Below the pieces are notes generated by a model. It did no database searches. It saw only the letters and a list, made by a program, of their open reading frames with translations, and was not told the DNA's origin. 64,000 nucleotides of DNA from an uncultured Clostridia bacterium (GTDB lineage: Bacteria > Bacillota > Clostridia > Christensenellales > UBA3700). The first letter of the stretch is position 1. Every line of letters begins with the position of its first letter. Position numbers and translations under genes: made by a program. The stretch covers positions 3,945-67,944 of the forward strand of contig CANSGN010000001.1 in the NCBI GenBank assembly GCA_947646415.1. Reading direction: 5' to 3'. Shown here one piece after another: positions 4,940 to 60,764 of the stretch.

Positions 4940-5114
4940 TACATGGAATAAGTATATCTATGTACATATTATATATTTATTATAGGGTCATAAGTAAACT
5001 TTTGTCAACATTTAATTAAACATTTTGTAATATCTTTACAAAAAAGCTACAAAAACTTTAAAAAACTTTTCAAAAAAACTCCCATTTTGTACATAGATAT
5101 ACTTATTCTATGTA
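4940..5114. promoter_or_regulatory. candidate invertible promoter segment (copy 1)
   Basis: Left IR at 4940-4966 (tacatggaataagtatatctatgtaca) and right IR at 5088-5114 (tgtacatagatatacttattctatgta) match 26/27 as reverse complements and enclose 121 bp. On the minus strand, TTGACA (5008-5003), an 18-nt spacer and TATAAT (4984-4979) point away from the ATG at 5137. Confidence 0.6.
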
Positions 5115-25053: not shown

Positions 25054-26166
25054 ATGAGTAATTTACATAGTCATTTGCTTGTCAAAATTTCCGATAGCAA
25101 AACGGATAACTGCGTTGTACTTGGCAATATCCGTATATGCGTAATAACAGACAAACTGATTCGTGTGGAAATTGCCAAGGATAGCAACTTTTGCGATTTG
25201 CCTACACAAAAAGTTTGGCACAGGGCATTTGCAAATGCAACATTCGATTGTAAAGATAACGGCAAATTTATAACTGTAAAAACGCAAAGCACGCAGTTTG
25301 ATATTGACAAAAGCGGAAATATCGTTTGTGTAATTTTGGCTGACGGCAGGAGAGTAAAAGATTGTCGAAAAGGCAATTTGAAAGGCACTTGTAGGACGCT
25401 TGACGGAACTATCGGTGCAGTACCTTTAGGTAACGGAGTTGTATCCGAAAACGGGGTGGCAATACTTGATGACAGTAACTCGCTTTTGTACAATTTAGAT
25501 GGCGAATTGTGCGAAAATTCCTACAAAAATCGGGACTATTATGTTTTTGCATACGGCTATGAGTACCGTCAAGCGGTTGCGGATTTTTATAAACTAAGCG
25601 GTGTTACTCCACTTATGCCAAAGTATGTTTTGGGTAATTGGTGGAGCAGATATAGGGCATATACGCAGCAAGAATATCTTGACGTAATGGATAATTTTAT
25701 AAAACGAAATATCCCGCTTACTATAGCAACTGTGGATATGGATTGGCATTTAGTTAACGGCATAGACAACAAGTACAGGACAGGCAATCCTTATCCATGG
25801 GAGTCTACGGGTTGGACGGGTTATACTTGGAATGAGGAGCTGTTCCCCGACTACAAACAGTTTTTAAAAGATTTGCATGCCAAAAATTTAAAAGTTACGC
25901 TAAACCTTCATCCTGCCCGAGGTGTAAGAGGGTATGAGGCTATGTACAAGGATATGGCAGATGCTATGTGGGTAGATAGCAAAACGGAAAAACCAATCGA
26001 TTTCGATTTTATTAAATATCAATACAAAAATGCTGCAAAAACTATGGTATACAACAAATTTAAAAATGTAAATACAAAAGAAGATTTGCAAAAAGCACTT
26101 AACGGTTTGGCAGGACATAAACGCCTTAAATCCCAGCTTAAAGAATTGTTGTATATGGCTTTTTGA
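25054..26166 (+). pseudogene. truncated glycoside hydrolase family 31 gene (N-terminal ~320 aa only, unrelated tail)
   Basis: GH31-like ...LMPKYVLGNWWSRYRAYTQQEYLDVMDNF..IPL..ATVDMDWH...LNLHPA.GVR... The region that should hold the catalytic Asp (WIDW/xDMxE type) is absent. After about aa 323 the sequence becomes Lys-rich and unrelated, then stops at 370 aa. Full-length GH31 enzymes are much longer. Confidence 0.55.
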
Positions 26167-26469: not shown

Positions 26470-26973
26470 GTGAAAAAGATATTTTTAAAATCAATGGTTA
26501 TATCAATGTTGATGGTTTTAATGTTGGGTATGAGTATGCTCTTTGTCGGATGTGAAGATTATGAAAATAAAGTATATGAAATTACTTTGCACCCAATACA
26601 TCCTATAACAGGCGAAGAAAGAAGTGAAGCATATATGACAATAGACAGTGAGACTTTATACGGAGATAGAGAGTTTATAGAAATAAAGTTTAAAGAAAAA
26701 GGCAAAAAAAAGTTTTTGCCAAACAAATATATATCTTTAAACGAACTAAATCATTTGGTTGATATTTATGTGTCTACATTGGACAGTGACTACAAGGAAA
26801 CAATCATGTTGCACGGGTCAATAAAATATCCAGAAAATATCCCAAAAGAAAAAGGGACATATAGAATTCAAGTTGAATTCAACAACTATACTTATGATGG
26901 ATATGGAAATATGTTGAGGCTATCGACTAAATTTGAATCCACATATATTAATTTTGGATTAAAAATAATATAA
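26470..26973 (+). CDS. small putative lipoprotein, paralog 1 of 3
   Basis: GTG start after GGGGGG/AGGA. Signal peptide ends in LFVGC (lipobox-like). 167 aa. The leader DNA is nearly identical to that at 27627. Confidence 0.7.
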   Translation: MKKIFLKSMVISMLMVLMLGMSMLFVGCEDYENKVYEITLHPIHPITGEERSEAYMTIDSETLYGDREFIEIKFKEKGKKKFLPNKYISLNELNHLVDIYVSTLDSDYKETIMLHGSIKYPENIPKEKGTYRIQVEFNNYTYDGYGNMLRLSTKFESTYINFGLKII

Positions 26974-27001
26974 TTACATTTAATTATAAGAGGAGTGACA
27001 A

Positions 27002-27088
27002 ATGTTAAAAAAGAAAAATTTAAAATACTTAAGCATGGTACTTGTTTTGGTTATGTTAATTACAATGGTTGTAATAACAGCATTATAA
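27002..27088 (+). CDS. 28-aa hydrophobic micro-ORF (possible signal-peptide remnant or small membrane peptide)
   Basis: AGGAG sits 6 nt before the ATG at 27002. Translation MLKKKNLKYLSMVLVLVMLITMVVITAL. Below the ORF-track length cut-off. Confidence 0.3.
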   Translation: MLKKKNLKYLSMVLVLVMLITMVVITAL

Positions 27089-27108
27089 AATAAAAAGGAG
27101 GATATAAT

Positions 27109-27612
27109 GTGAAGAAAATATTTTTAAAAACAATAGTTATATTAATGGTAACAGTTTTAATGTTAGGTATTAGTATGCTATTTGTGGGATGTGTAGAAGA
27201 GGAGGAAAAAGAGCCTGTATTTGAAATCAAGTTGTATGACGATAAATGGCAAGAACTAAAAAGACAAGGAGATAAAAGTTATACAAAGTATGAAGATTAT
27301 GTAGTAAAATATGACGGGACACGGAAGTTGTGTAATGCCATTGTATACAGAGACGGAAAAGAGTTTTATAGATTAGATTATAAGACAAATCCAAACTATT
27401 ATTATGATAGATGTTTAGAAGTATGTGAATATCGAAATGATTTTCATGAAGTCATTAAAGATAAAATGCCATATAAAGTAGGGGAGTATGAATTGATTTA
27501 TCAATATAGCTCCTATGGATATAGTAAAAACATAAATTATTTTGCAGGTAATCCATTGCCAATAAAGTATTATCATGATACGGAAAAAATTAAGCTAGTA
27601 ATACAAGAATAA
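27109..27612 (+). CDS. small putative lipoprotein, paralog 2 of 3
   Basis: GTG start after AGGAGG. LFVGC lipobox-like motif. Mature part VFEIKLYDDKWQELKRQG...YVVKYDGT is highly similar to the next gene. Confidence 0.75.
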   Translation: MKKIFLKTIVILMVTVLMLGISMLFVGCVEEEEKEPVFEIKLYDDKWQELKRQGDKSYTKYEDYVVKYDGTRKLCNAIVYRDGKEFYRLDYKTNPNYYYDRCLEVCEYRNDFHEVIKDKMPYKVGEYELIYQYSSYGYSKNINYFAGNPLPIKYYHDTEKIKLVIQE

Positions 27613-27626
27613 GGAGGGATAGGATT

Positions 27627-28142
27627 GTGAAAAAGATATTTTTAAAATCAATGGTTATAGTAATGTTGACAGTGTTAATGTTAGGTATTAGTATGCTATT
27701 TGTGGGATGTGTAAAAGAGGAGGAAAAAGAGCCTGTATTTGAAATCAAATTGTATGACGATAATTGGCAGGAACTAAAAAGACAAGGCAATGAAAAGTCT
27801 GCAATTTATGAAGATTATGTAGTCAAATATGATGGGACATACAAATTATGTAATGTGAAAGTTTTTAAAGATGAAAAGGAGTTTTATAGAATAGATTATA
27901 AAACAAATGGTACTTTTTATTATGAATATTTTTTGCAAATTAGAATAAGAAAAAAAGAAGATGATAGTGGGGTTTATGTGACAGGGTTTAATGATATGCC
28001 AACTGCAATAGGGGAATATGTTTTGATATGCGAATATAATTCCTATGGATATAGACATAGTCTTAATTATTTTTCGGACAATACATTCCCAGCAAAATAC
28101 TATTTGAAGAGCGAGACAGTTAACTTAATTATACAAGAATAA
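27627..28142 (+). CDS. small putative lipoprotein, paralog 3 of 3
   Basis: GTG start after AGGAGGGA. LFVGC. Tandem duplicate of 27109-27612. Confidence 0.75.
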   Translation: MKKIFLKSMVIVMLTVLMLGISMLFVGCVKEEEKEPVFEIKLYDDNWQELKRQGNEKSAIYEDYVVKYDGTYKLCNVKVFKDEKEFYRIDYKTNGTFYYEYFLQIRIRKKEDDSGVYVTGFNDMPTAIGEYVLICEYNSYGYRHSLNYFSDNTFPAKYYLKSETVNLIIQE

Positions 28143-28152
28143 GGAGAAAATT

Positions 28153-31100
28153 ATGTTAAAATACAAACAAAAAATATTAATTACGCTATTAGCGATTATT
28201 ATGTTGCTAATATGTGGCGTGATGATTTTGATTAATGCAAATATTGCGAAAGCAGAGGAAAACAGCTTTAATATAGAAGATTATACTAATAGTAATGAAT
28301 TTTACTATAATAATAGTACACGTAATATTGTAAATTATTTAGGTAATTTGTATGAGCCATATAATTTAACATACAGTGAATTACCAGATTTATACGGAAG
28401 TACAATAAAAAATTCAATAAACGGAATAATGGTTAGCGGAGATGACCCAATAGTGGGGATTGTTCCCAAAGAATTGTTAAAAAAGCCCAATCAACATTAT
28501 ACATATATGGGTAAAGAATATGGGCTTTTTGTAAAAACAGAAACGTTAGGTAATAATGTGTTATCAAATGTTATAGTTTATGATATTATTAATGATGACG
28601 ATTATGTCAAAAATAAAAGTCACATGAAATTTAGTATAAAAGTTTTGTTTCAAAGGGAATATTTGTATGTAGCAAATGCAGGGGACTATATGATAAAAAC
28701 AAGACGTTTTTTGCCTATAGTCCCGGGGGATAAAGTAATATATAAATTGAGTGAAAATATTGATACAACCTTTGTTTTACATGCACAACAGTCTGACTTG
28801 GTAATGCCAATGCCGTATTTTTTGGATAGTAATACAATGGTTTTATGTGACAGCCAACGGTATATAGTGCAAGACATTGTAAGTACAGTTGCATTATTTA
28901 ACGAGCAACACTTGAACGACGGAGACGAGGGATATAGCCCAAGGCTTGATATGGGTAAATTTATAACTCAAATAGATGGTGGTTATAAAGCAACGGTTTA
29001 TGATGTCAACGAAAAAAGCTTTTTTGAGGAACTGTTTAAAACAACTTTAATTGTAAAAGTGTGCGATGGGTTGGAATATGGCTTTGAAAAATTAGGATAT
29101 GGTGCATTGTGGGGATTGGGAGAGTTTGCTGCCGATGCTTATGATGCGTACATGGAAACAGCAGATAGATTACAACAGCTTACAAGAAATTTTACATATA
29201 TTTGCAAGGGTACAACAAGTCAAGAACAATTAGAACTTACAGGACAGTTGGCAAAATTCGGATTGTCTACACTTCAGTTTTTTAACGATGGTCAGTTTGG
29301 ACAAGGAAGCTATATGTTTTATGACGAGGGCGATTTTTACGAGGCAGATTATCAAATAGGATATACACCCGTATTGGATGAGTACAATCGATATAAGACG
29401 CCTTGGGAAGCAAGATTGGTAAGAGGATTTTCGTTAAAATTTGTTGACAGCAATGATAAATCTAATATAACAACATCTAGTGGAGTATACGATTTTTATT
29501 TAGCTGACAAAGAACATAAAGAATACTTAGGCTATCCTATTGCTAATAATACTGAGCACGTATCGATTTTGCCGGGTGGAAAAAATTTGTTGGCGTTTAT
29601 GCCTATTTTGCATTCCGGCAAATATAAATTAACTACTGTTGGTGCCAATGCACCGGTTAAATTATCTGTTAACATGGGAGGTATTGGCAGCACACAAGTA
29701 TATAACCAACATTTTGAAAATATAAATGAAAATGATATAGTTTTTGAGTTTGAAATTAAACAAGGGTCTATTTATGTTTTTGAGGTGCAATTTTTGGATA
29801 AACTACAGCAAGGTAATTTTGATGTTACATTGGAGTTTGTTCCTCAGGAATTGACTTGGGGAAATAATGAGGTATATGTTGATAATTTGCATGAAAGTTA
29901 TAGGATATACAGCGAAAAAACTTCTTATTTGGAATCAACTGTTTCAAAACCAAATTGGGGATGTGTTTTATATGATAAAAATTTAAAACAAATTTCTGAT
30001 TATAGATCGCTTAACAAAGATGAGTATCATTATATTCGTGTCGGAAGAGATTTTAATGTGGATTCTGCAGTGACTATTAATTTAAGACAGTATATAAACA
30101 TAAAATTAGAAAATATTGATAATATAGATAAATATTTATATCCATATTCAACGTATTATTTTGATTCGGATTTAGTACTTCCTACACCTACCAAAAACGG
30201 GTATGAATTTGAAGGATGGTGGACAAGCGTATATGATTTTGGAGAGTTGGTAACAAGTGAAAATATCGAAGATTTTGATGTAAGAGATATTACCTTATAT
30301 GCAAAATGGAAATCCATAACCTACAATGTACGGTATGTAACTAATGGTGGTAGCGGGATAGAAATGGATACCTACATATCTAACAATAGTTATCAGTTGC
30401 GTACCGATACATATAAGGATGGATATGTTTTGTACGGTTGGTACGATAACCCTGAATTTACAGGCGATAGAATAGAAGTAATTGAAAAGGGAAGTGTAGG
30501 AGATAAAGTTTTTTATGCAAGGTGGATAAAAAATGAATTTATAGTAACTCTTGACATTAACAAAAGTGCGACCGAGAATGTTGAAGCGCAGTTAGACACT
30601 AAGACGATTTTTGTAAATTATAATAACTATTTTACTCTTCCTGTGCCACGCATTGATGAATACGATTTTGATGGTTGGTATTATGGGGATATACAAATAA
30701 CCAATAAAAACGGAGAAAGTTATAGCAAGTTTACTTTTGAGCAAGATATTGAGTTGACTGCAGGTTGGACAAGAAATACATTCTTTATTTGTATGAATGA
30801 CGACGGCAACATACTATGGCTTGCAAAAGAAAACGGCGAGTACTATTTTACGGATAAAATTGCCGGCTTGAAAAAAGAAGATGAAATGTGCCCGAGTTGT
30901 TACATAAAATCACAATTACAGAACAATTCGGGCAGTGAATATACAAAAAATATAAAGGGACAACTGTTTAAGTCAGGACATATTTATAGGACAATGGCTT
31001 TAGAGCCTAAAAAAATAATTAGGGGCGAAGAGTTTGACGAGAACTTATGTTGTTGGAAACTTATTAACTTTATCCAAAACAATAAAAATAAGATAATTAA

Positions 31101-33117
31101 TATTTATCCTGTTTATGAGTTAGAAAGTTATACCGTAATGTTTGATATGAATGACAATTCGCAAGATATCGTAACAAAAACAGTTTATTATGGCGATAGT
31201 ATGACTCAATTTGAAATACCAACTAAGTTAGGTTATACTTTTGAAAATTGGGTAGTAAAAAACTTTGCAAATTATTATACAGAATATGGGTATGTTGCAA
31301 AAAATTTCCCTGCAGGGTTTATATTCCCTCAGGAAATGCCAGATTTAACAGCAGGAATTGAAAATTTTGTTCAACCTAGCATTATGTTAGCACCAAAATA
31401 TTTATCCAATGAGTATACGGTTAGATTTGCAGGAGAAAATATCTATTTTGATGCTAAAAAAGTACTTTTTGGCAAGAGCTATAGTAATAATGATAGAAAT
31501 GCTTTTCCGATTCCAATGAAAACCGGTTATTATTTTGATGGTTGGTACAGTGGAACAAACGGAACAGGTAAAAAAGTCGTGAACGAGTATGGTGCTATTG
31601 ACAGTTGGAATATTGCTAACGATTGTACTTTGTATGCATACTTTACGCCGATTCACTATCAAATGAGATTTGATTTTTGCGGTGGTAACGGAGATGTAAG
31701 TGCATTGGAAGTAATTTTTGACCAACCTTTACCTAATACTATTGCACCGACTAGGACAGGGTATACATTTGCAGGTTATTTTGATAGAACTGATGGTAAC
31801 GGAACTCTATACTATAATCAAAATATGGTTGGAATGATGACTTGGACAAATACGGAAAGTAAAACGCTTTATGCACATTGGACGGCAAATACTTATACAG
31901 TTAATTTAAACAATCAAGGTGGTAACGGCGGGGATGTACAGTTTACAGTAACCTACGGACAACCATTGCCGGATAATTTAGAAGCACCGTCAAAAATGGG
32001 AAATTATTTTAGAGGTTATTATTCCGATTATGATGGTCGCGGTACGTATTATTTGGATAGTACAATGAAATCAATGAATAATTGGGCTATAGCTCACGAC
32101 ACTACATTATATGCTAAATGGGAAGTTCGTTATTTAAACATAACAGTAAGATATGAGTATGTGGAAGACGATGTATTTAAAACATTAGCAACAAGAGATA
32201 TTGTACTTGCAGGAGATGAAACACTTTACTTTGATGCTCCTGTATATGAGGGATTTACGTTTGAAAAGTGGAGGGCACATGGCAGTGACAGCAAAGATTT
32301 ATCACAAGTTCCACGAAAAGTATTAGCACAAGCAGAAACTTCTAATGCTATATCAATAAATTTTGATTATTACAAAAAACTTATGAATTATAGGTACCTA
32401 TTCTTATGTGCTCACTATCAAAAAAATAACTGCATAGCAGAGGGCTCAATGATAACTCTTGCCGATGGTAGTCAAAAGGCTGTTGAAGATTTGACAGGAA
32501 ACGAACAATTATTGGTTTGGAACTTGATGACAGGAAAATTTGATACTGCACCTATTTTGTTTATTGATAGTGACTCCGAAAGTAAATATCAAGTTGTCAA
32601 CTTGCATTTTTCGGACGGAACTATCGTTAAAGTAATTTCCGAACATGCTTTTTGGGATTTTGATTTGAACAAATATGTTTTTTTAAGGAGTGACGCAGAT
32701 AAATATATCGGGCATTGGTTTAACAAACAAATAACCAATAGTAATGGCGATATGGCTTGGACAAAGGTGCAGTTGACAAATGTGCAAATTACAAGTGAAA
32801 AAACGAGGGCTTTTAGTCCTGTTACATACAGCCATTTGTGTTATTATGTCAATGGAATGCTTTCAATACCCGGTGCTACCGAGGGGTTGATTAACATTTT
32901 TGAAGTTGACAGTCAAACAATGCAGATAGATATCGAAAAATTTAATGCTGATATTGAAAGATATGGTTTATACAGTTATGAGGAGTTTTCTCAAATCGTA
33001 CCTGTCACTGAAGAAGTATTTAATGCTTTTAACGGACAATATTTGAAAGTTGCTATTGGAAAAGGCTTAACAACAATAGAAAAACTTCAAAATTTAGTCG
33101 CAGTTTATTTTAATTAA
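28153..33117 (+). CDS. 1654-aa secreted/anchored protein: unknown N-terminal region, about 8 Listeria/Bacteroides-type (Flg_new-like) repeats, C-terminal Hint (intein-like) domain plus 68-aa tail
   Basis: N-terminal TM/signal segment ILITLLAIIMLLICGVMILI. Repeats of the GY.F.GWY...G type (GYEFEGWW, GYVLYGWYDNPEFTG, GYYFDGWYSGTNGTG, GYTFAGYFDRTDGNG and others) span about 30170-32290. The Hint-like block starts at Cys1427 (32431): CIAEGSMITLADGSQKAVEDL...VISEHAFW... Confidence 0.8.
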   Translation: MLKYKQKILITLLAIIMLLICGVMILINANIAKAEENSFNIEDYTNSNEFYYNNSTRNIVNYLGNLYEPYNLTYSELPDLYGSTIKNSINGIMVSGDDPIVGIVPKELLKKPNQHYTYMGKEYGLFVKTETLGNNVLSNVIVYDIINDDDYVKNKSHMKFSIKVLFQREYLYVANAGDYMIKTRRFLPIVPGDKVIYKLSENIDTTFVLHAQQSDLVMPMPYFLDSNTMVLCDSQRYIVQDIVSTVALFNEQHLNDGDEGYSPRLDMGKFITQIDGGYKATVYDVNEKSFFEELFKTTLIVKVCDGLEYGFEKLGYGALWGLGEFAADAYDAYMETADRLQQLTRNFTYICKGTTSQEQLELTGQLAKFGLSTLQFFNDGQFGQGSYMFYDEGDFYEADYQIGYTPVLDEYNRYKTPWEARLVRGFSLKFVDSNDKSNITTSSGVYDFYLADKEHKEYLGYPIANNTEHVSILPGGKNLLAFMPILHSGKYKLTTVGANAPVKLSVNMGGIGSTQVYNQHFENINENDIVFEFEIKQGSIYVFEVQFLDKLQQGNFDVTLEFVPQELTWGNNEVYVDNLHESYRIYSEKTSYLESTVSKPNWGCVLYDKNLKQISDYRSLNKDEYHYIRVGRDFNVDSAVTINLRQYINIKLENIDNIDKYLYPYSTYYFDSDLVLPTPTKNGYEFEGWWTSVYDFGELVTSENIEDFDVRDITLYAKWKSITYNVRYVTNGGSGIEMDTYISNNSYQLRTDTYKDGYVLYGWYDNPEFTGDRIEVIEKGSVGDKVFYARWIKNEFIVTLDINKSATENVEAQLDTKTIFVNYNNYFTLPVPRIDEYDFDGWYYGDIQITNKNGESYSKFTFEQDIELTAGWTRNTFFICMNDDGNILWLAKENGEYYFTDKIAGLKKEDEMCPSCYIKSQLQNNSGSEYTKNIKGQLFKSGHIYRTMALEPKKIIRGEEFDENLCCWKLINFIQNNKNKIINIYPVYELESYTVMFDMNDNSQDIVTKTVYYGDSMTQFEIPTKLGYTFENWVVKNFANYYTEYGYVAKNFPAGFIFPQEMPDLTAGIENFVQPSIMLAPKYLSNEYTVRFAGENIYFDAKKVLFGKSYSNNDRNAFPIPMKTGYYFDGWYSGTNGTGKKVVNEYGAIDSWNIANDCTLYAYFTPIHYQMRFDFCGGNGDVSALEVIFDQPLPNTIAPTRTGYTFAGYFDRTDGNGTLYYNQNMVGMMTWTNTESKTLYAHWTANTYTVNLNNQGGNGGDVQFTVTYGQPLPDNLEAPSKMGNYFRGYYSDYDGRGTYYLDSTMKSMNNWAIAHDTTLYAKWEVRYLNITVRYEYVEDDVFKTLATRDIVLAGDETLYFDAPVYEGFTFEKWRAHGSDSKDLSQVPRKVLAQAETSNAISINFDYYKKLMNYRYLFLCAHYQKNNCIAEGSMITLADGSQKAVEDLTGNEQLLVWNLMTGKFDTAPILFIDSDSESKYQVVNLHFSDGTIVKVISEHAFWDFDLNKYVFLRSDADKYIGHWFNKQITNSNGDMAWTKVQLTNVQITSEKTRAFSPVTYSHLCYYVNGMLSIPGATEGLINIFEVDSQTMQIDIEKFNADIERYGLYSYEEFSQIVPVTEEVFNAFNGQYLKVAIGKGLTTIEKLQNLVAVYFN

Positions 33118-33158: not shown

Positions 33159-33455
33159 ATTTTATTGCATTATTTCAATTATATTAAATGCATATGTTTT
33201 ATGCCAAACCATAATTGACAGTTTTGCCAATATATGGTAAAATATTATCAATAAGTTTGAAATTGTAGGAATTAAACTTAGGAAATTAAGACATTTTTTG
33301 GCAGCTAACTAAAAAAAGCATACAAAACTGCCAAAAAGAAAAATATCAAATTATCACAAAATGTGCGGAAATATTTTTAGAAAAATTAAAAGCAGAATTG
33401 AAAAATTAATGTTAGATGTTTTTAAATTGTGTATTTAAAATATAAATTAAATTGT

Positions 33456-33716
33456 TTAATTGTTTAGGGCATTGGCAAATTTTTTGCCAATGTCTATCCC
33501 ACATTCAAAATGGAAATTGTTTGTTTCTGTTATATATTTTGTGTACGTTTCTAAAATATTTTTTAACTCGTTTGATTGCTCGTCAGAGAGTGTTTTTTGA
33601 AATTTTGCTAATAAATTATCAAGTTCTTCCTGCGTATCTATTATATTTTTAGGCTGGTTTTCCAATATTTGGAGTAATTTGCCACTTATTATTTCGTAAA
33701 TTTGTTCACTTATCAT
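33456..33716 (-). CDS. 86-aa hypothetical helical protein
   Basis: Clean ORF divergent from the XRE gene. No recognisable motif. Confidence 0.45.
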   Translation of the reverse strand: MISEQIYEIISGKLLQILENQPKNIIDTQEELDNLLAKFQKTLSDEQSNELKNILETYTKYITETNNFHFECGIDIGKKFANALNN

Positions 33717-33861
33717 TATTTTCTCCGAATGTATTTCTTTTTATATTGTAACTCATTTGAAATACTAAGTCAAGATGTTAGTCTTATATAACTAAAGTTG
33801 TTTATATAAAAGTTTATTATAGTATATAATATAAACATTAATATCTGGGAGCTGGAAAAAT

Positions 33862-34221
33862 ATGGAAATTAAAGAGAAAATTAGAGATATTATGATTGAA
33901 AGAGGTTATACTATTTATTCTTTATCTAAGGCAACTGAATTATCTCAAACTAGTATTGCAAATTGGTTTAATAAAGTTAACAACGAGCCTAGTATTTCCG
34001 CATTGGAAAAAGTTTGTAAGGCGTTTGATATTACTATGGCAGAGTTGTTCGCAAAAGATAGCGACACTTTATTGCCGTGCAAGGAGGAATTTAGAGATAT
34101 TTACAACAAACTATTAAGGTTGACACCTAAACAAAGGCATGCAGTGCTGGTACATATTGATAGTTATTTATATGCAAATAACCGAAAAACATCTAAAGAT
34201 GTAAATTGCTCGGATGTTTGA
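33862..34221 (+). CDS. XRE-family helix-turn-helix transcriptional regulator
   Basis: ...YTIYSLSKATELSQTSIANWFNK...SISALEKVCKAFDITMAELF is a classic HTH_3 pattern. Confidence 0.8.
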   Translation: MEIKEKIRDIMIERGYTIYSLSKATELSQTSIANWFNKVNNEPSISALEKVCKAFDITMAELFAKDSDTLLPCKEEFRDIYNKLLRLTPKQRHAVLVHIDSYLYANNRKTSKDVNCSDV

Positions 34222-34268
34222 TATTTACTTTATTTAGCAAACATTAATTTTACAAGAGGGTTAACAGA

Positions 34269-34988
34269 ATGATTAACATAGCGATTTGCGATGACGATAA
34301 AACAATTATAGATACAATTTATAATGAGATACATACTATTGACCTTGATGGTGTTAAATTGAATGTCAGTACTTTTTTAGACGGCAATGATTTATTAAAA
34401 GCTTACAAAACTTCGGGGCAATTTAATATTGTTTTTATGGATATCGAGATTGGTGGCAGCAACGGCATTGAAATTATAGAGGAAATTCGCCGTTTTGATT
34501 CGGAGGTAATTGTCATTTTTGTGACAAGCTATCCTTATTATGTAGTAAAAGCGTTGCGTGTAGGAGCTTTTCAGTATTTAACAAAACCAATAGTACTAAG
34601 TGATTTGAAAAAAGATTTTATAAGAGCGGTCAATGTTTATAATAGTAAATACAGCGATTATAGATTTCAATCGAATGGCAATATCATAGTAAAACGCATT
34701 ATTGACATTTATGCAATAGAAGTTAAAAATAAAAAGATGTATGTTTATTTAGGCGATAAGATTTACGAGGAAGATGTTAGGTCGTCGCTAAAAGAAAAAG
34801 AGGATAAGTTTATCACACATCATTTTGTAAAATGCCATAAAAGTTATATGGTTAATATGTGGAAGATAAGTGAAATAAAAAAGGATGATATAATTTTGAA
34901 AAACGGTTACAGCATACCATTAAGTAGAAATTTTAGAAACTTTGTACTAGAAAAATTTAATGTTTTTATATCGAGGCAAAAAATATGA
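34269..34988 (+). CDS. LytTR-family response regulator (AgrA-like)
   Basis: Receiver domain MINIAICDDD...FMDIEI..., C-terminal LytTR-like part ...FVKCHKSYMVN...SIPLSR. 239 aa. Confidence 0.85.
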   Translation: MINIAICDDDKTIIDTIYNEIHTIDLDGVKLNVSTFLDGNDLLKAYKTSGQFNIVFMDIEIGGSNGIEIIEEIRRFDSEVIVIFVTSYPYYVVKALRVGAFQYLTKPIVLSDLKKDFIRAVNVYNSKYSDYRFQSNGNIIVKRIIDIYAIEVKNKKMYVYLGDKIYEEDVRSSLKEKEDKFITHHFVKCHKSYMVNMWKISEIKKDDIILKNGYSIPLSRNFRNFVLEKFNVFISRQKI

Positions 34989-36289
34989 ATGTAGTTTTTG
35001 TTATAGTAAAGATATTAAGTGTTATAATGGAGCTTTTTATTGTTGATTTTGTTTTTCGGTCACTTAGGGAAAACAGGCTGGATAAAATAAAAAGATTTTT
35101 GATATACGGCACTTTTATTATTGTTCGCTCTGTGGCGATTTGTTTTATAAATTTTACAATTATCAATTTACTGATTTCTTTTACTAATTGCTTTTTAATA
35201 TCCCTGTTTTACAAAATAAAATGGTTTAAAAGAGTTCTTGTTACTATTGCAATGACCTTAGGTTTTGTGTTGACTGAAATGTTGGTGGGTTTGATTGTAA
35301 GTAGCTTGACAAGTGCCTCTATTGTGGAAATTCAGTCAAATGTTGTGTTTTTTATAGAAAGTGTATTATGCTCCAAATTGGTAATGATGATTTTTGCGCA
35401 AGCAGTGCGATTGATTATCCGCAAAGATAGTTCTAAATTGTCCGTTGGTATGTATGCGGCACTATTTATTATGCCTGTTGCTACCTGCTTTATTGTGTTT
35501 GCAGCTTCCGAAGTTATTTATAAAAACAACGATTTGTATTTAACGATTATAATGATAGTAGGTGTGATAAGCATTTTAATCGCGAACTATATTTTGATGT
35601 ATGTTGCGGAGAAAAACGTCAAGCAAATCGTGGATGAGGCTACAAATGAGTTTTTAAAGCAAGAGCTTGTCCAACAACACAAATATTATGAAGATTTAAT
35701 ATCAAAATATAAATTCAATAATAAAAAAATACATGATATCGACAAACAACTGTTGGTATTAAACAGTATGATAAATGCTAACGGGTTTGAAAATGCAGGA
35801 CAAGAATTGTTAAAAGTCAATCAAATAGTCGAGGGCGCAAAAAGTATTGGATATACGGGTATAGCATCCATAGATGCTTTGCTTAATAACATAGAGGATA
35901 AAAGTAAGCAATATAATATACAATTTAAAAAGCATATTTTTATTGATGAAATTGTAAAAACAAACGAAATGGATTTTTGTTTGCTACTAGGTAATTTGCT
36001 TGATAATGCCATTGAAGAGTGTTTAAGATTAATTGAGGAAAATAAAACAGATTTATTTATGATATGCGACATCAAAAAGGTAGATAACTACCTAAATATA
36101 GTAGTAGAAAATTCGTGTAGGGAAAAGGAGACCTTAACTACTTCCAAATCAAATAAATATAAACACGGATACGGGTTGCATATTATTGACGAGATTGTGC
36201 AAAAATTTGACGGCAGCATAAAAAGAGAAAGAATTGACGGCGTGTTTACTACAATGATAATATTAAACACACATGTTAGGGCAGTATAA
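34985..36289 (+). CDS. AgrC-like membrane sensor histidine kinase (GHKL, HPK10 type)
   Basis: About 6 N-terminal TM helices, H-box KKIHDIDKQL, N-box GNLLDNAIEE, G-box HGYGLHIIDEIV. Start overlaps the regulator's stop. Confidence 0.85.
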   Translation: MNVVFVIVKILSVIMELFIVDFVFRSLRENRLDKIKRFLIYGTFIIVRSVAICFINFTIINLLISFTNCFLISLFYKIKWFKRVLVTIAMTLGFVLTEMLVGLIVSSLTSASIVEIQSNVVFFIESVLCSKLVMMIFAQAVRLIIRKDSSKLSVGMYAALFIMPVATCFIVFAASEVIYKNNDLYLTIIMIVGVISILIANYILMYVAEKNVKQIVDEATNEFLKQELVQQHKYYEDLISKYKFNNKKIHDIDKQLLVLNSMINANGFENAGQELLKVNQIVEGAKSIGYTGIASIDALLNNIEDKSKQYNIQFKKHIFIDEIVKTNEMDFCLLLGNLLDNAIEECLRLIEENKTDLFMICDIKKVDNYLNIVVENSCREKETLTTSKSNKYKHGYGLHIIDEIVQKFDGSIKRERIDGVFTTMIILNTHVRAV

Positions 36290-36357
36290 ATACGCGTTAG
36301 GACAAAAGTATTTGAAAACTTAATAAAACATGTTATTGTATACTAAAGGAGGCTTTA

Positions 36358-36948
36358 ATGCTTAAATTTCTATCGCATAAGATGACATGCTTTTTTATTA
36401 GAAAAAATGTAATTGAGCAATCTGAAGAAGAAACCTATGATTACTGTTTTGAAATATTACTTTCAACTTTAATGAATTTATTTTCAATTATTATAATTGC
36501 CGTTTGCACCCAAACATATCTATCAAGTTTTTTATTTATCGTTATTTTTATGATTATGCGTTCTTTGTCAGGTGGTTATCACGCTGACACCCATTTCAGA
36601 TGTTTTTTAATATTGTTGTTTGTTTATTCCGGTTTGATATTGTCTATTAAATTTTTACCAAATGTTTTTTTTATAAGCCTTATTTTTAATGTTTTTTCTT
36701 TAATTCTGTATCCAATATTAGCACCGGTAGAGCATTATAATAATCCTATGGATAAAATCAAAAAAAGAAAGTTGAAAGTCAAAAGCATATTAGCCTCTCT
36801 TATAATTATATGCGCAAGCAGTGTAATGGTATTTTTTACTCCGACCGAAATTATAGGTTTCACTATGGCATATACCAATTTTGTCGTAGTCATATCATGT
36901 CTTTTTTCGGTATTTAAAAACAAATTATTACATAATAAGGCAGGATAA
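36358..36948 (+). CDS. agrB: AgrB-like accessory gene regulator B (autoinducing-peptide maturation protease)
   Basis: Polytopic, 196 aa, with the conserved motif RSLSGGYHADTHFRC (catalytic His/Cys spacing as in AgrB). AAGGAGG RBS. Confidence 0.8.
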   Translation: MLKFLSHKMTCFFIRKNVIEQSEEETYDYCFEILLSTLMNLFSIIIIAVCTQTYLSSFLFIVIFMIMRSLSGGYHADTHFRCFLILLFVYSGLILSIKFLPNVFFISLIFNVFSLILYPILAPVEHYNNPMDKIKKRKLKVKSILASLIIICASSVMVFFTPTEIIGFTMAYTNFVVVISCLFSVFKNKLLHNKAG

Positions 36949-37027
36949 GTACCTGTCAGGACATAGTTATGGACTTTATTCGACAAAAGTGCTTTAATAA
37001 AGTAAATCAGCAAAGGAGGACATAAAT

Positions 37028-37177
37028 ATGAATGAGAAAAAAAATAACAAGTTTTTTTCTAAATGCGTAACAAAAGCAGCTTTAACTTTGGGCGAAAAAT
37101 CGGTAAGTTCCGCATGCTCATGGTGGTTCTGCCAACCTAAAGTGCCTGCTAGTATGCAAAAAACAGAGAAAAAATAA
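37028..37177 (+). CDS. agrD: AgrD-like autoinducing peptide precursor (49 aa)
   Basis: AGGAGG sits 7 nt before the ATG. Translation MNEKKNNKFFSKCVTKAALTLGEKSVSSACSWWFCQPKVPASMQKTEKK: amphipathic leader, Cys+4 core (CSWWF), then a QP..P charged tail, as in clostridial AgrD peptides (SACLWFTHQPEEP type). Lies directly after agrB. Too short for the ORF track. Confidence 0.7.
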   Translation: MNEKKNNKFFSKCVTKAALTLGEKSVSSACSWWFCQPKVPASMQKTEKK

Positions 37178-37214
37178 TTTATTTAATACTTTGAATTTAA
37201 AAGTAAATGTACGC

Positions 37215-37250
37215 AATAAACCGAGTGTTTTACTCGGTTTATTAAATATT
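37215..37250 (+). terminator. intrinsic terminator after agrD
   Basis: aataaaccgagt (37215-37226) pairs with actcggtttatt (37232-37243). Confidence 0.75.
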
Positions 37251-37300
37251 GTAAGCTATATTACAATATTTTAACTTAGTAAAAAATAAAGGAGAAAAAA

Positions 37301-56676: not shown

Positions 56677-56840
56677 GGTTGTTATGGTAAATTTGTGTAA
56701 TGCTTAAAAGGTATTATAAATGCTTGATTAGTATAGATTAAAAAGCTCTGGTATAGATTAGTGAAATAAATTTAACCTGCAATTTCAGCCAAATATTTTC
56801 TTGTTTTAATTAGTAAAATGCAATATCAAAAAACAAAAAT

Positions 56841-56880
56841 GCACCTCAAAACAATTTGTTTTGGGGTGTTACTTTTTGTG
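56841..56880. terminator. bidirectional terminator hairpin of cassette 4
   Basis: gcacctcaaaac / gttttggggtgt (56841-56869) with T-runs on both strands. Confidence 0.65.
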
Positions 56881-56979
56881 TAAAGTTTAAAGTAAGTAAA
56901 AAGTGGTGTTCACTGCAATAATCCTGCCAAAAATCGGGACTATTGGGGTTGAAATTTTGTCATTAATGTAAAGTTTGGG

Positions 56980-57154
56980 TACATGGAATAAGTATATCTA
57001 TGTACATATTATATGTATATTTTAAACTAAAATGTAAGATAATGTCAACGTTATAGCAAAGGTTTTGTAAACTCTTTACTTTAAGCATACAAAAATTATA
57101 TATTCAAACTCAAAAAATCCGTGATTTTGTACATAGATATACTTATTCTATGTA
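56980..57154. promoter_or_regulatory. candidate invertible promoter segment (copy 4)
   Basis: Left IR at 56980-57006 and right IR at 57128-57154 enclose 121 bp. On the minus strand, TTGACA (57048-57043), 18-nt spacer, TAAAAT (57024-57019). Confidence 0.6.
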
Positions 57155-57176
57155 AGGAAAAAACGGAGGTTTTATT

Positions 57177-60100
57177 ATGACAAAACATGCACGAAAGGCA
57201 GGGAAAATAATTTTTGTATTAGTAATTTCCTTTCTGTTAATAATGGGATGTTTATTTGCATCCGACGTGATAAAGGATAAAACTGATAACACAAATTTGG
57301 ATAATATGGCAAAGGATGTGCAAACAACTGCGGATGTGACATACACTCTGCCAGGCAGTTATTCGGAAAATGTTCGTATATGGAATGAGGCGATAGATTA
57401 CGCACTTGCAAATACCTCTTCAAATGTTTTGGTAAAATTAAATGGGAATTGGACCGCAACAACTCATGCTACTTTTGGTACAACATTTGGTGGTGGTAGT
57501 GGTTTTAGCAATGGAAGAATTTATATCCCTAAAAAAGCAAATGTAATTTTAGATATAAATGGAAAAACAATAAATAGAAATTTAACTTCGTCCAATGCTA
57601 ATGGGTCAGTTATTTATGTGCATGGAACTTTAAGAATTATTGACAGTGGGTTTGTTTCTAATACAATTTATGATTTAGACGATGCAATGGCTCTTAATAT
57701 TAAAAGTGGACAAATAACAGGCGGTTATACTACTTATGGTGGCGGAATTTATATTGACGGCGGTAAATTTTATATGTATCAAAGTGCTATTTTTGCAAAT
57801 AAGGCAACAGATGCCGCAGGTGTGTTTGTTACAAATAGCGGAGAAGTTAATGTCTACGATGGTATAATACTAAAAAATATCGCTTCTCGTACCGGTGGCG
57901 GTATATGTAGTTTAAATAGTTCTAAGATTAATGTGTATGGAGGACATATATTCCAAAATACGGCGACACATAGCGGTGGCGGTATTTATGGATATGAGGA
58001 ATGTATAAGAATTTACGGTGGTAAAATTTCTTATAACAAAGCAGGGGTTGCAGGTGGAGGAGTTGGATTAGCTAATTCTGCAAATAGCAGCAAAAAGGCA
58101 ATAATTAATAATTGCATATTTAGTCATAACAAAGCATATTCTGGTACAACGGTTGAAACTATTGGTGGTGCAATCAATGCAAATGCTGCGACAGTTGATT
58201 TGGACGGAGTGGAAATAAAAAATAATGAGGCAGATTCAGGCTCCGCAATAGGTGATGTTAGTAATAAAATTACTCTAAAAAACTGCATAATAACTAACAA
58301 TAAAGCAACTACTTCTGATGGATATGCCGTACAATTACATGATTATGCAGAAAATGGCGTGTACTTATCTTGCGGCAATAATGTTATAATCAACAATAAT
58401 GTTAATTCTGAAAACGATTCTTATAATATACATAACGAAAAAAATGTTTGGATAGAAATTTATAAACACGATATAGAATTATTTGAATATGCACCTAGTA
58501 GTCGTATTAGTATTTCTACAGAACCTTATTCAACTAGTAGCCCCGTTGAATTTATATCATATTACAATATTAGTGATTCAAAAAACGATTTCAAAACTAT
58601 ATCATCGATTTTTCATAATGATGCAGATGGTGTAAAGAATGGAAGTACCATTCAGGCGTATGGTCCAGGACAGTCATATAGATTTTCAGAAATGCCTACA
58701 ACTAATAGTGATATATATGGCGGAGGTGTATATTGGAGAGTAAATGGCGAAAATAACGATGAAATTCATGATAATACAATAAATTACAAGGAAGTACCTT
58801 ATACAGGTGAGGATTATACAGTAGAATTTTGCAGTTATCACAATTTCAGCAATTTAAATTACAACATATATTCTCCATCTAGTGGTGGTATTGATGGAAT
58901 GTGTGGTGTTACAGCTAGAGTTAGAAATGCTGGTATATATGTTTTTACTGCCGATAGAATACTTGACGGGTATTTTGTAAAGAATAGAGGCTCTTTCATT
59001 TTGAGAATTGTTCCAAAACAAGTAACATCAATGGCATGGGGAACTGACACAGCTGTTTATGACACATCGGCGCATAAAGTATCTTTGACATTGTATGATT
59101 CAGGCGTGTATTTTAATACAGATGTTCAAACTCTATTGGGCGGAAAAAATGTAGGGACAGGAATTAATTTTGCTACTAATGAAATTTCAAATAAAAATTT
59201 CAAACTGCCATTGTGGAATAGGGTAAAAACATTTACTATAACTCCAAGATATTTGGATAGACCAACGATAAAAAGTGGTACGGGAAGTACATTTACCTAT
59301 GACGGTACACAACATCAACTGCAGTTAAATAATTATAATACAACTTACCTAACCGGTTTACAATCATATACCGATGCGGGATGGCATGAAACTAAAATAT
59401 CAATAAAATCTCCTGGGAATTGCTATTGGAAAACTACAACAGGTAGTTCAAGTGGAACGGATACGGCAGATATAACCTTTATGATGGAAATATTACGAAA
59501 ACCAATAGAAAAACCAATATTAGGAGATAATGAGTTTATATATACAGGTCAAGAAATAACATTTCTTCCTGACGGTTTTGACGCATCGCAAATGGAAATA
59601 ACGGGTAATAAAAATACCAATGTAGGAGAGTATACGGCAAAAGTTAAGGCTAACTCCAACCACTATTGGAGTGATATTAGTTCAACTCAAGAAATATCAT
59701 TTGAATATAGAATAATCCCACCAGGTATTGCAGTAAAAAGTGGAGTGGATTATGACTATCAGTATATAGACAGCAATAATATTCGAACAAATTATTTAAA
59801 AAATTATATGCACAAATGGGATGATGGAACTTTGAATTTAGTAAATGGTCAACCAAGGCATGTATTGGGCAATATTCCTTTAAATACTAGTGTAGAAACT
59901 TTTTTACAAAATTTGTATAATGATAGAAATTTGATAAAGATATATGCAAATGAAAGTAATCTAAACATAATATATGACGGTTTACTAGGTGTAAGGGATA
60001 ATTTAAGCCAAACTTTAGCCACAGGCAATAAAGTAGAATTGTATAATAATAATGGCGAAAAAACAGACACAATTTATTTATCTATACTAGGAGACATAAA

Positions 60101-60764
60101 CGGAGACGGTAGAATAAATGCGAGTGACGTATCCTACTTAAGACAAGTGGCAAATGACAGCACATTGCTAGAAAATATGCCAATAGAAAAGAAACTAGCA
60201 GGTATGATAAACAATCATGGAGGAATAACCGAGGCTGACAGTGAGATATTGAGGGACATATTAAGTAAAAAGTTGAATATCGAAGATTTTATCAGTACCG
60301 TTATTGGCGATAGAAATGAAGAATATACGTATATAAGAATTGTGAACAATAAAAGAGAAGATGGCCCATCAAGCATTATCGGAAACATAATGTTAAATAC
60401 AACTGTAAGAGAATTTTTAGATAAGTATAAAACTTCAAATCCAATAGTGGCTATTCGTAATAGACAAGGCGAGCAAGTAACCGATGAAAACGCAATAGTA
60501 GGAACAGGTTGGAGCATCGATATATCTTATCAAGGAGAAATTTATACTTATTGGCTATCAATATTAGGCGACTTAACAGGAGACGGTAGAATAACCGCGG
60601 CAGACGTAACATATTTAAGAGCTATCGTTGCAGGGGAAGAAGCACCGGAACATGTAAAATTGGCAGGAATGATACTAAACAAAGGGGGAATAACTGCCGC
60701 AGATGGAGAAGTGCTAAAACAAGTAATCAAGGGAACTGTAGAAATTAAAAAATACTTTTTATAA
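57177..60764 (+). CDS. secreted GGxIY beta-helix repeat protein with YDG/Ig-like modules and two C-terminal dockerin-like modules
   Basis: MTKHARKAGKIIFVLVISFLLIMGC signal/anchor, GGGIY repeats, FTYDGTQHQL / YTGQEITF modules, then LGDINGDGRINASDVSYLRQVA... and LGDLTGDGRITAADVTYLRAIV... Confidence 0.8.
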   Translation: MTKHARKAGKIIFVLVISFLLIMGCLFASDVIKDKTDNTNLDNMAKDVQTTADVTYTLPGSYSENVRIWNEAIDYALANTSSNVLVKLNGNWTATTHATFGTTFGGGSGFSNGRIYIPKKANVILDINGKTINRNLTSSNANGSVIYVHGTLRIIDSGFVSNTIYDLDDAMALNIKSGQITGGYTTYGGGIYIDGGKFYMYQSAIFANKATDAAGVFVTNSGEVNVYDGIILKNIASRTGGGICSLNSSKINVYGGHIFQNTATHSGGGIYGYEECIRIYGGKISYNKAGVAGGGVGLANSANSSKKAIINNCIFSHNKAYSGTTVETIGGAINANAATVDLDGVEIKNNEADSGSAIGDVSNKITLKNCIITNNKATTSDGYAVQLHDYAENGVYLSCGNNVIINNNVNSENDSYNIHNEKNVWIEIYKHDIELFEYAPSSRISISTEPYSTSSPVEFISYYNISDSKNDFKTISSIFHNDADGVKNGSTIQAYGPGQSYRFSEMPTTNSDIYGGGVYWRVNGENNDEIHDNTINYKEVPYTGEDYTVEFCSYHNFSNLNYNIYSPSSGGIDGMCGVTARVRNAGIYVFTADRILDGYFVKNRGSFILRIVPKQVTSMAWGTDTAVYDTSAHKVSLTLYDSGVYFNTDVQTLLGGKNVGTGINFATNEISNKNFKLPLWNRVKTFTITPRYLDRPTIKSGTGSTFTYDGTQHQLQLNNYNTTYLTGLQSYTDAGWHETKISIKSPGNCYWKTTTGSSSGTDTADITFMMEILRKPIEKPILGDNEFIYTGQEITFLPDGFDASQMEITGNKNTNVGEYTAKVKANSNHYWSDISSTQEISFEYRIIPPGIAVKSGVDYDYQYIDSNNIRTNYLKNYMHKWDDGTLNLVNGQPRHVLGNIPLNTSVETFLQNLYNDRNLIKIYANESNLNIIYDGLLGVRDNLSQTLATGNKVELYNNNGEKTDTIYLSILGDINGDGRINASDVSYLRQVANDSTLLENMPIEKKLAGMINNHGGITEADSEILRDILSKKLNIEDFISTVIGDRNEEYTYIRIVNNKREDGPSSIIGNIMLNTTVREFLDKYKTSNPIVAIRNRQGEQVTDENAIVGTGWSIDISYQGEIYTYWLSILGDLTGDGRITAADVTYLRAIVAGEEAPEHVKLAGMILNKGGITAADGEVLKQVIKGTVEIKKYFL

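Follow-up and report, generated by a model that had tools for sequence, protein, structure and literature searches.

A putative invertible promoter ahead of a dockerin gene in an uncultured gut Clostridia bacterium, and the cassette family to which it belongs

The switch region and its surroundings

The window, meaning the whole 64,000-nt stretch of contig CANSGN010000001.1 analysed here, comes from an uncultured Clostridia bacterium of the mouse gut and contains four similar cassettes, of which copy 4 (56831–57176) is the subject of this study. Together with the large gene behind it, copy 4 lies between a CapD-like Polysacc_synt_2 gene, the last of a pyrimidine-biosynthesis cluster, and a convergent GH31 gene. 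Both neighbours had been named in the original prediction, which also placed copy 4 at 11 kb from copy 3; this distance is correct when counted to 56831 from position 45465, where the copy-3 gene ends. The region contains the following features.

56841–56869 (unstranded): intrinsic terminator hairpin with a 13-bp stem (terminator scan; −21.7 kcal/mol, z = −3.7; covariation)
56870–56979, plus strand: conserved leader of ~110 nt from the terminator to the left repeat (alignments)
56980–57006, plus strand: left inverted repeat (IRL), TACATGGA-ATAAGTATA-TCTATGTA-CA, an 8-9-8 dyad
57007–57127 (unstranded): 121-bp segment, putatively invertible by analogy with an exact flip at a paralogous locus (L134 vs L128); equal to copy 3 at 121/121 positions
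57019–57048, minus strand: predicted sigma-70-type promoter, TTGACA (57048–57043), 18-nt spacer, TAAAAT (57024–57019); 11/12 match in the promoter scan, hexamers conserved in 64 distinct cassettes
57063–57079 (unstranded): conserved dyad, family consensus TTTTGTAA-N5-TTACAAAA (conservation profile)
57128–57154, minus strand: right inverted repeat (IRR; repeat search)
57165–57169, plus strand: ribosome-binding site (RBS) GGAGG, 7 nt before the ATG, kept in 4/4 window copies
57177–60764, plus strand: copy-4 cargo gene, 1195 aa, with two stretches of Pfam Dockerin_1

The repeats and the minus-strand promoter are those originally predicted. The two 27-nt arms are complementary at 26/27 positions (96%) and share the same spacer, the single mismatch being an A for G in the outer half-site of IRR. 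Outside the repeats the edges read GTTTGGG on the left and AGGAAAA on the right. With matching spacers and consensus arms, nothing in the sequence suggests that copy 4 is disabled. As assembled, its promoter aims at the leader and terminator, away from the gene. An A-run precedes the terminator hairpin and a T-run follows it, so that termination is possible on both strands, and the terminator scan found no such site inside the switch. The conserved dyad sits inside the segment, 15–35 nt upstream of the −35 hexamer, with an equivalent in all cassettes; it is a possible site for a regulator or a recombination accessory protein. TGTAAA-type motifs, putative sites for the same kinds of protein, also recur in the leader. 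On the plus strand, a promoter-like site (TTTACT-18-TATATT, 57075–57104) matches at 9/12 positions; three such matches were found against 4.2 expected, which is no better than chance in AT-rich DNA.

Four cassettes and their cargo genes

A search for the inverted repeat with up to three mismatches returned eight occurrences in the window, forming four pairs with 121 nt between their arms (4940–5114, 39399–39573, 43055–43229 and 56980–57154), where 100 shuffles gave an expectation of zero. Alignment of the four copies reveals a common architecture of G+C-rich hairpin with T-run, ~110-nt leader, IRL, interior, IRR, GGAGG and ATG. Behind each lies a large ORF on the plus strand whose N-terminal signal region is conserved, and the 3′ ends of the four genes show no conservation beyond the coding sequence. 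The interior of copy 4 had been described as nearly identical to that of copy 3; the likeness is real and the wording too weak, as the two are the same at every position. Copies 1 and 2 constitute a second sequence type, matching the copy-4 interior at 78–82/121.

All four downstream proteins carry Pfam Dockerin_1. The copy-4 protein consists of an N-terminal signal/anchor sequence, a region rich in GGGI-type repeats that makes up its N-terminal two-thirds, and dockerin type I modules at ~971–1025 and ~1128–1190. The Dockerin_1 (PF00404) match reaches 35 bits (cut-off 22.9), and the duplicated Ca-binding segments GDINGDGRINASDVSYL and GDLTGDGRITAADVTYL are visible. Its proposed resemblance to the copy-2 gene is borne out by 44% identity over the C-terminal 469 aa and by two Dockerin_1 stretches in each. 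The N-terminal region has no Pfam, NCBIfam or PDB sequence match. Most likely it forms a right-handed parallel beta-helix, because remote relatives of the protein carry Beta_helix (PF13229), Chlam_PMP (PF02415) and NosD (PF05048) repeats. Close relatives are few and all dockerin-bearing, and the database holds no record of the exact copy-4 and copy-1 proteins. No cohesin partner was detected in the window.

Other parts of the window contain further unusual ORFs. Three tandem ORFs of 167–171 aa at 26470–28142 lie in a GC trough (0.27) and have no Pfam match; between the first two, similarity is confined to a lipoprotein-type signal peptide (MKKIFLK...LFVGC). Just downstream, 28153–33117 encodes a 1654-aa protein with Listeria-Bacteroides (Flg_new) repeats. 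A 370-aa ORF at 25054–26166 aligns with the GH31 TIM-barrel profile over the first third of that profile alone and may be a truncated second GH31 gene.

The cassette family in related genomes

The cassette is widespread among relatives of the window genome. Searched with the IR core, reference genomes yielded 52 stretches, nearly all from mouse-gut MAGs labelled Christensenellaceae or Christensenella, and a metagenome scan with the IR alone returned 60 further stretches. At least 22 complete cassettes occur in MGBC162486, which shares ~94% identity with the window. Another species, MGBC121002, whose leader sequence differs, contains 20 complete ones, along with several others cut by contig ends. 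One 1.9-kb contig (L040, CBFGCD010000030.1) in a 'Candidatus Gastranaerophilaceae' MAG ends in an MGBC162486-type leader and IRL, and was most likely binned there as a contaminant.

The IRs hardly vary among 64 distinct complete cassettes, and between species they are much better preserved than the interior. Inside the segment, the −35 and −10 hexamers rank with the best-preserved positions, and a few other blocks are also kept. Compensatory changes in 7/9 pairs of the terminator stem, seen in 92 aligned cassettes, mark the hairpin as a real structural element. The leader contains the invariant blocks TGTAAAGTTT, GCAATAAT, TCAAAAATCGG and AATGTAAA, which are kept across paralogues and species, with variable stretches between them. 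No conserved RNA structure was found in 92 aligned leaders, nor any Rfam family; a leader hairpin predicted in the window copy was rejected, as it is absent from the sister species. The leader is probably protein-binding DNA.

Each IR arm is an 8-9-8 dyad, TACATRGA-ATAAGTATA-TCTATGTA. This would be the layout of a complete tyrosine-recombinase core site, with the 8/9/8 lengths read from the sequence. The spacers of the two arms covary within a cassette, with 48 G/G, 11 A/A and 2 mixed pairs (Fisher p = 2e-10, a value inflated by paralogue descent). A cassette adjacent to a recombinase gene, described below, has a private spacer, TTAAGCATA, in both arms.

Inversion within the family

DNA inversion is evident for the cassette family at three loci. 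The recombinase-adjacent locus is represented in several samples, and L128, L129, L130 and L133 show one orientation while L134 shows the opposite. The L134 interior is the exact reverse complement of that in L128, the inner half of each repeat included, and on either side the flanks agree over all 600 nt. In MGBC121002, the interior of L050 fits its paralogues only as the reverse complement (81–86/121 vs 49–51/121). A metagenome contig, L088, is also flipped, with its −10-proximal interior end preceding the gene-side IR. In 3/3 flipped copies a promoter of the form TTGACA-18-TATAAT faces the gene. The innermost IR base moves with the interior in all of them, and therefore the crossover lies inside the repeat. 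Misassembly is an unlikely source of the flips, given that assembly k-mers are longer than the 27-nt repeats and reads are longer by far. The original reading of these units as switch cassettes is thus supported by family members in both orientations against identical flanks, and by a promoter that faces the gene once flipped.

Orientation is heavily biased, with ~80 leader-facing cassettes against 3 gene-facing ones. The former comprise ~73 complete cassettes and the great majority of those cut by contig ends. Cassettes also break short-read assemblies. Three Logan contigs from different runs (L131, L132 and L135) end at an identical base within the IRL of the switch beside the recombinase gene, a position unlike a simple k-mer branch at the IR edge; this shared stop could reflect mixed orientations within samples. 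Seven further Logan contigs (L117–L123) stop at one base, 56 nt past the copy-4 stop codon (window-equivalent 60820).

A candidate recombinase

The window itself has no recombinase among all ORFs of at least 150 aa, including by phmmer with Hin, XerD and FimB. A candidate is found in MGBC162486, where a 309-aa tyrosine recombinase (L005:6476-7405) is encoded two genes upstream of a cassette. It has the Phage_integrase (PF00589, 94.2 bits against a cut-off of 27.1) and Phage_int_SAM_3 (PF14659, 49.6 bits) domains, and the catalytic motifs TGIRLGEL, HSLRHTFAT and LGHANPTITLNRYAH are visible. The sister species retains the same order of recombinase, Metallophos gene and cassette, and the enzymes of the two species measure 304–309 aa. 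The nearest solved relative is Tn1549 Int. Assignment to the XerC, XerD or FimB types was rejected, as the protein falls below the cut-offs of those NCBIfam equivalogs.

The tyrosine type is the only recombinase that recurs beside cassettes in 1.12 Mb of cassette-flanking DNA. No Hin-like serine recombinase occurs among the ORFs of that DNA, and a serine-invertase system of the Hin/Gin/Mpi kind was rejected for want of any such match. The ~305-aa tyrosine recombinase is therefore the likely family invertase. This assignment is of moderate strength only, because its family of ~303-aa recombinases is a very large one in Clostridia MAGs, with distant members adjoining relaxases, and because a 77%-identical orthologue keeps the Metallophos neighbour with no cassette of this IR nearby.

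The recombinase-adjacent cassette of MGBC162486 (L005:4343-4517) has no family gene behind it; rarA/mgsA is next, 158 nt off. Its sister-species equivalent precedes a 1013-aa family member (L128).

Exchange of switches and cargo

The original suggestion was of a module, made up of terminator, switch and gene, that spreads or is exchanged as a whole. This is borne out only in part: whole blocks can be present or absent, but travel as an intact unit does not hold, as switch and cargo form a mosaic. At the block level, a ~95%-identical metagenome contig (L109) lacks 9.7 kb (33160–42900) that include copy 2 and its gene, and the left edge of the gap shows no cassette remnant. The same block encodes a LytTR regulator (34269–34988), a GHKL kinase (34985–36289) and AgrB (36358–36948) in an agr-like arrangement, and a GLUG-motif protein (37301–39145).

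The mosaic is seen most directly at the capD locus of MGBC162486. Terminator, leader, interior type and repeats are the same there as in copy 4, and the homology to the window extends no further than the start codon. A different paralogue lies behind this switch, and the orthologue of the copy-4 gene is found behind another flank, on another contig. The breakpoint falls in the conserved IRR-RBS-ATG stretch, so that site-specific and homologous exchange are indistinguishable. Within the window, copies 3 and 4 likewise combine one interior with different genes.

A second comparison concerns copy 3 (43055–43229), whose arms differ in spacer (IRL ATAAATATA, IRR ATAAGTATA); only one other cassette of the 70 is G/A-mixed in this way. 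A separate assembly (L142) covers copy 3 in the same orientation as the window and has an A-type IRR. It differs from the window in the last ~10 interior nt and the IRR spacer, exactly where window copies 3 and 4 are the same. This pattern suggests conversion between cassettes at window copy 3, which would be G/A-mixed because it was partly converted by a copy-4-type cassette. The mixed spacers may impair its inversion.

Whether copy 4 is a simple insert was examined through GH31 orthologues (80–84% protein identity). These lack an adjoining cassette and dockerin gene, and because capD is missing there too, the comparison represents broken synteny and not a clean empty site. Overall, the comparisons give a picture of mosaic exchange, in which the conserved cassette serves as shared sequence, together with ordinary block indels.

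State of copy 4 and proposed mechanism

Copy 4 is found in one orientation only, with the promoter away from the gene. This applies to the window, to an independent assembly of copy 4 that reaches 63 nt into the interior (L115), and to the orthologous switch in MGBC162486 (L019). The contig used to look up the capD locus breaks inside the leader. The flipped junction of the window species (leader end, full IR and AAAT) had no matches in metagenome contigs; the IR-only control found 60 stretches, so relatives are present and are assembled in the leader-facing state. Consensus assemblies show the majority state only. A uniformly silent consensus is expected where at least 20 loci exist and few are expressed per cell, which is an argument and not a measurement. 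Copy 4 as assembled is most likely a silent copy.

The preferred reading, to which a probability of roughly 0.8 is given, is that copy 4 is an invertible promoter (inverton) flipped by a tyrosine recombinase encoded elsewhere, with the gene silent in the window state. A recombinase from elsewhere in the genome, for which the candidate above is proposed, would bind both 27-nt sites, which are mutually inverted 8-9-8 dyads, and strand exchange in the central spacer would flip the 121-bp segment. In the window state the promoter, if active as predicted, would fire towards the leader and its transcript would stop at the two-way terminator at 56841–56869. The same hairpin would block read-through from capD, leaving the 1195-aa dockerin gene silent. 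Inversion in silico places the end of the −10 hexamer 61 nt from the ATG and gives a 5′UTR of ~55 nt, which forms only a weak 8-bp IR-arm hairpin without a U-run and leaves the RBS free. After inversion, the promoter would thus read through IRR and the RBS into the gene. A flipped copy 4 would show the junctions leader + IRL + AAATCACGG and ATATAATA + IRR + AGGAAAAAACGGAGG.

The genome would carry at least 20 switches with like sites, each before a different secreted beta-helix dockerin protein. Most copies would be silent in most cells, resulting in phase-variable, combinatorial surface display.

Alternative explanations

The flips could instead be fixed strain polymorphisms, or rare past events of homologous recombination between the 27-nt repeats, in the absence of any dedicated reversible switch and with copy 4 promoterless, silent or otherwise regulated. 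The evidence from consensus assemblies, the single orientation of copy 4 throughout and the bias of ~80 to 3 would all be accommodated by such an account. It is nonetheless unlikely. Three independent, exact, IR-bounded flips are known, one of them with 600/600-nt identical flanks, and repeats of 27 nt are short for RecA-driven inversion. The 8-9-8 recombinase-site layout, the covariation of arm spacers, the greater conservation of the IRs over the interior and the synteny of a tyrosine recombinase with the cassette in two species also argue for site-specific inversion. Still less probable is an origin as a MITE-like element with an outward promoter that spread by transposition before these genes. 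Many near-identical copies with terminal inverted repeats would be expected of such an element, but the repeated unit outreaches the IRs, with terminator and leader on one side and RBS and signal peptide on the other. Target-site duplications are absent at the IR edges, and no transposase occurs in 1.12 Mb of flanks. The cassette always takes the same position relative to one paralogous gene family and inverts in place, so this explanation can practically be set aside.

A different possibility accepts that the segment flips but assigns the main output to the leader-facing state, as an antisense or leader RNA of ~170–190 nt, or else has a weak second promoter drive the gene, giving two active programmes. 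Leader blocks that are invariant across paralogues and species, terminator runs on both sides, the overwhelming majority of this state, the extra conserved interior blocks and the 9/12 plus-strand site are in keeping with it. Against this, the leader has neither a conserved RNA structure nor an Rfam match and the plus-strand promoter matches stay at chance level. The gene-facing geometry, with a consensus promoter 61 nt from the start codon and an RBS, is moreover the classic ON arrangement. Such an account is therefore quite improbable as a whole. Parts of it may apply alongside the preferred reading of copy 4 as an inverton: the window state may not be fully silent, owing to a putative weak opposite-strand promoter at 57075–57104, and the leader-facing "OFF" state could have a role of its own, given the extreme bias.

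Comparison with known switches

The proposed mechanism is of a known kind. What is new is the lineage, the pair of site and candidate recombinase, the copy number and the dockerin cargo. Full-text searches brought up no paper joining invertons or phase variation with dockerins, one general review apart.

The repeats of the Mycoplasma penetrans mpl switches are ~12 bp long, as against the 27-nt 8-9-8 dyads described here. In mpl (P35), as described in PMC2268961 and PMC10502178, citing Horino et al. 2003, most of 38 lipoprotein genes at several loci have their own invertible promoters, with tyrosine recombinase candidates nearby. The likeness extends to a multigene family of surface proteins, dispersed loci, per-gene ON/OFF promoter switches and candidate recombinases of the tyrosine type. 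The two differ in phylum-level lineage, with no sequence relationship expected, and in cargo, which is of beta-helix and dockerin type here and consists of P35-type lipoproteins in mpl. In addition, every cassette here comes with a conserved leader and a two-way terminator that covaries.

Mpi of Bacteroides fragilis is a serine recombinase, whereas the present cassettes are accompanied by a tyrosine candidate with no serine recombinase near any of them. The Mpi regulon and related Bacteroidales invertons, where many promoters are inverted by one recombinase with global action (Coyne et al. 2003, as cited in PMC2268961 and PMC11602134), resemble the present family in their scattered switches with common repeats, a recombinase encoded elsewhere and combinatorial surface variation in a gut commensal. 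The cargo in Bacteroides consists of capsular polysaccharide operons, in contrast to the single protein genes found here.

A host of the class Clostridia is shared with RecV of C. difficile, a tyrosine "master" recombinase that inverts several IR-flanked segments (cwpV, flgB and others; PMC5903667, PMC2784873, PMC5386303), and in both cases short switches precede genes for surface or regulatory functions. The switches of C. difficile number fewer than 10 and have dissimilar repeats, while at least 20 here have one site sequence and a consensus promoter. The cwpV and flgB switches act post-initiation, through terminator formation or Rho, unlike the present cassettes, which have a promoter inside the segment. 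A cwpV-type switch was ruled out, as the terminator precedes the whole cassette with none inside and a consensus promoter lies in the segment.

The sites themselves recall Cre/loxP and FLP/FRT, with inverted half-sites around an asymmetric spacer, inversion as the outcome of inverted sites and matching spacers in the partners. The private TTAAGCATA spacer in both arms of one locus is similar to lox spacer variants. The recombinase differs from Cre in being closest to Tn1549 Int, and the 8-nt half-sites and 9-nt spacer are lengths taken from the sequence alone.

Implications

Studies of invertible promoters are plentiful for Bacteroides, enterobacteria, C. difficile and mycoplasmas, and far scarcer for the uncultured Clostridia that form a large part of rodent and human gut communities. 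In the present case a small genome uses a single switch design at no fewer than 20 loci, each with a switch and a gene of 2–3.6 kb. Cassette loci account for a few per cent of a MAG with listed contigs of less than 2 Mb, and all control one protein family. The compact pair of site and candidate recombinase is a possible genetic tool.

A more tentative scheme, held as a speculative extension, has 20–25 dockerin beta-helix proteins competing for a cohesin anchor, with one invertase acting on lox-like sites to pick among them in each cell. With one site common to all switches, the invertase, or else recombination inside the conserved cassette, would also swap cargo between loci; spacer variants would insulate certain loci, and accessory sites in the leader would bias switches to the silent state. 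Such swaps would account for the change of gene behind the capD switch in the 94%-identical strain. If this reading were true, it would amount to a phase-variable "plug-in" surface, an undescribed use of cohesin-dockerin pairing.

The bacterium probably varies which dockerin-tagged surface proteins are made. If their display runs via a cohesin partner, phase variation by DNA inversion would be linked to cohesin-dockerin assembly.
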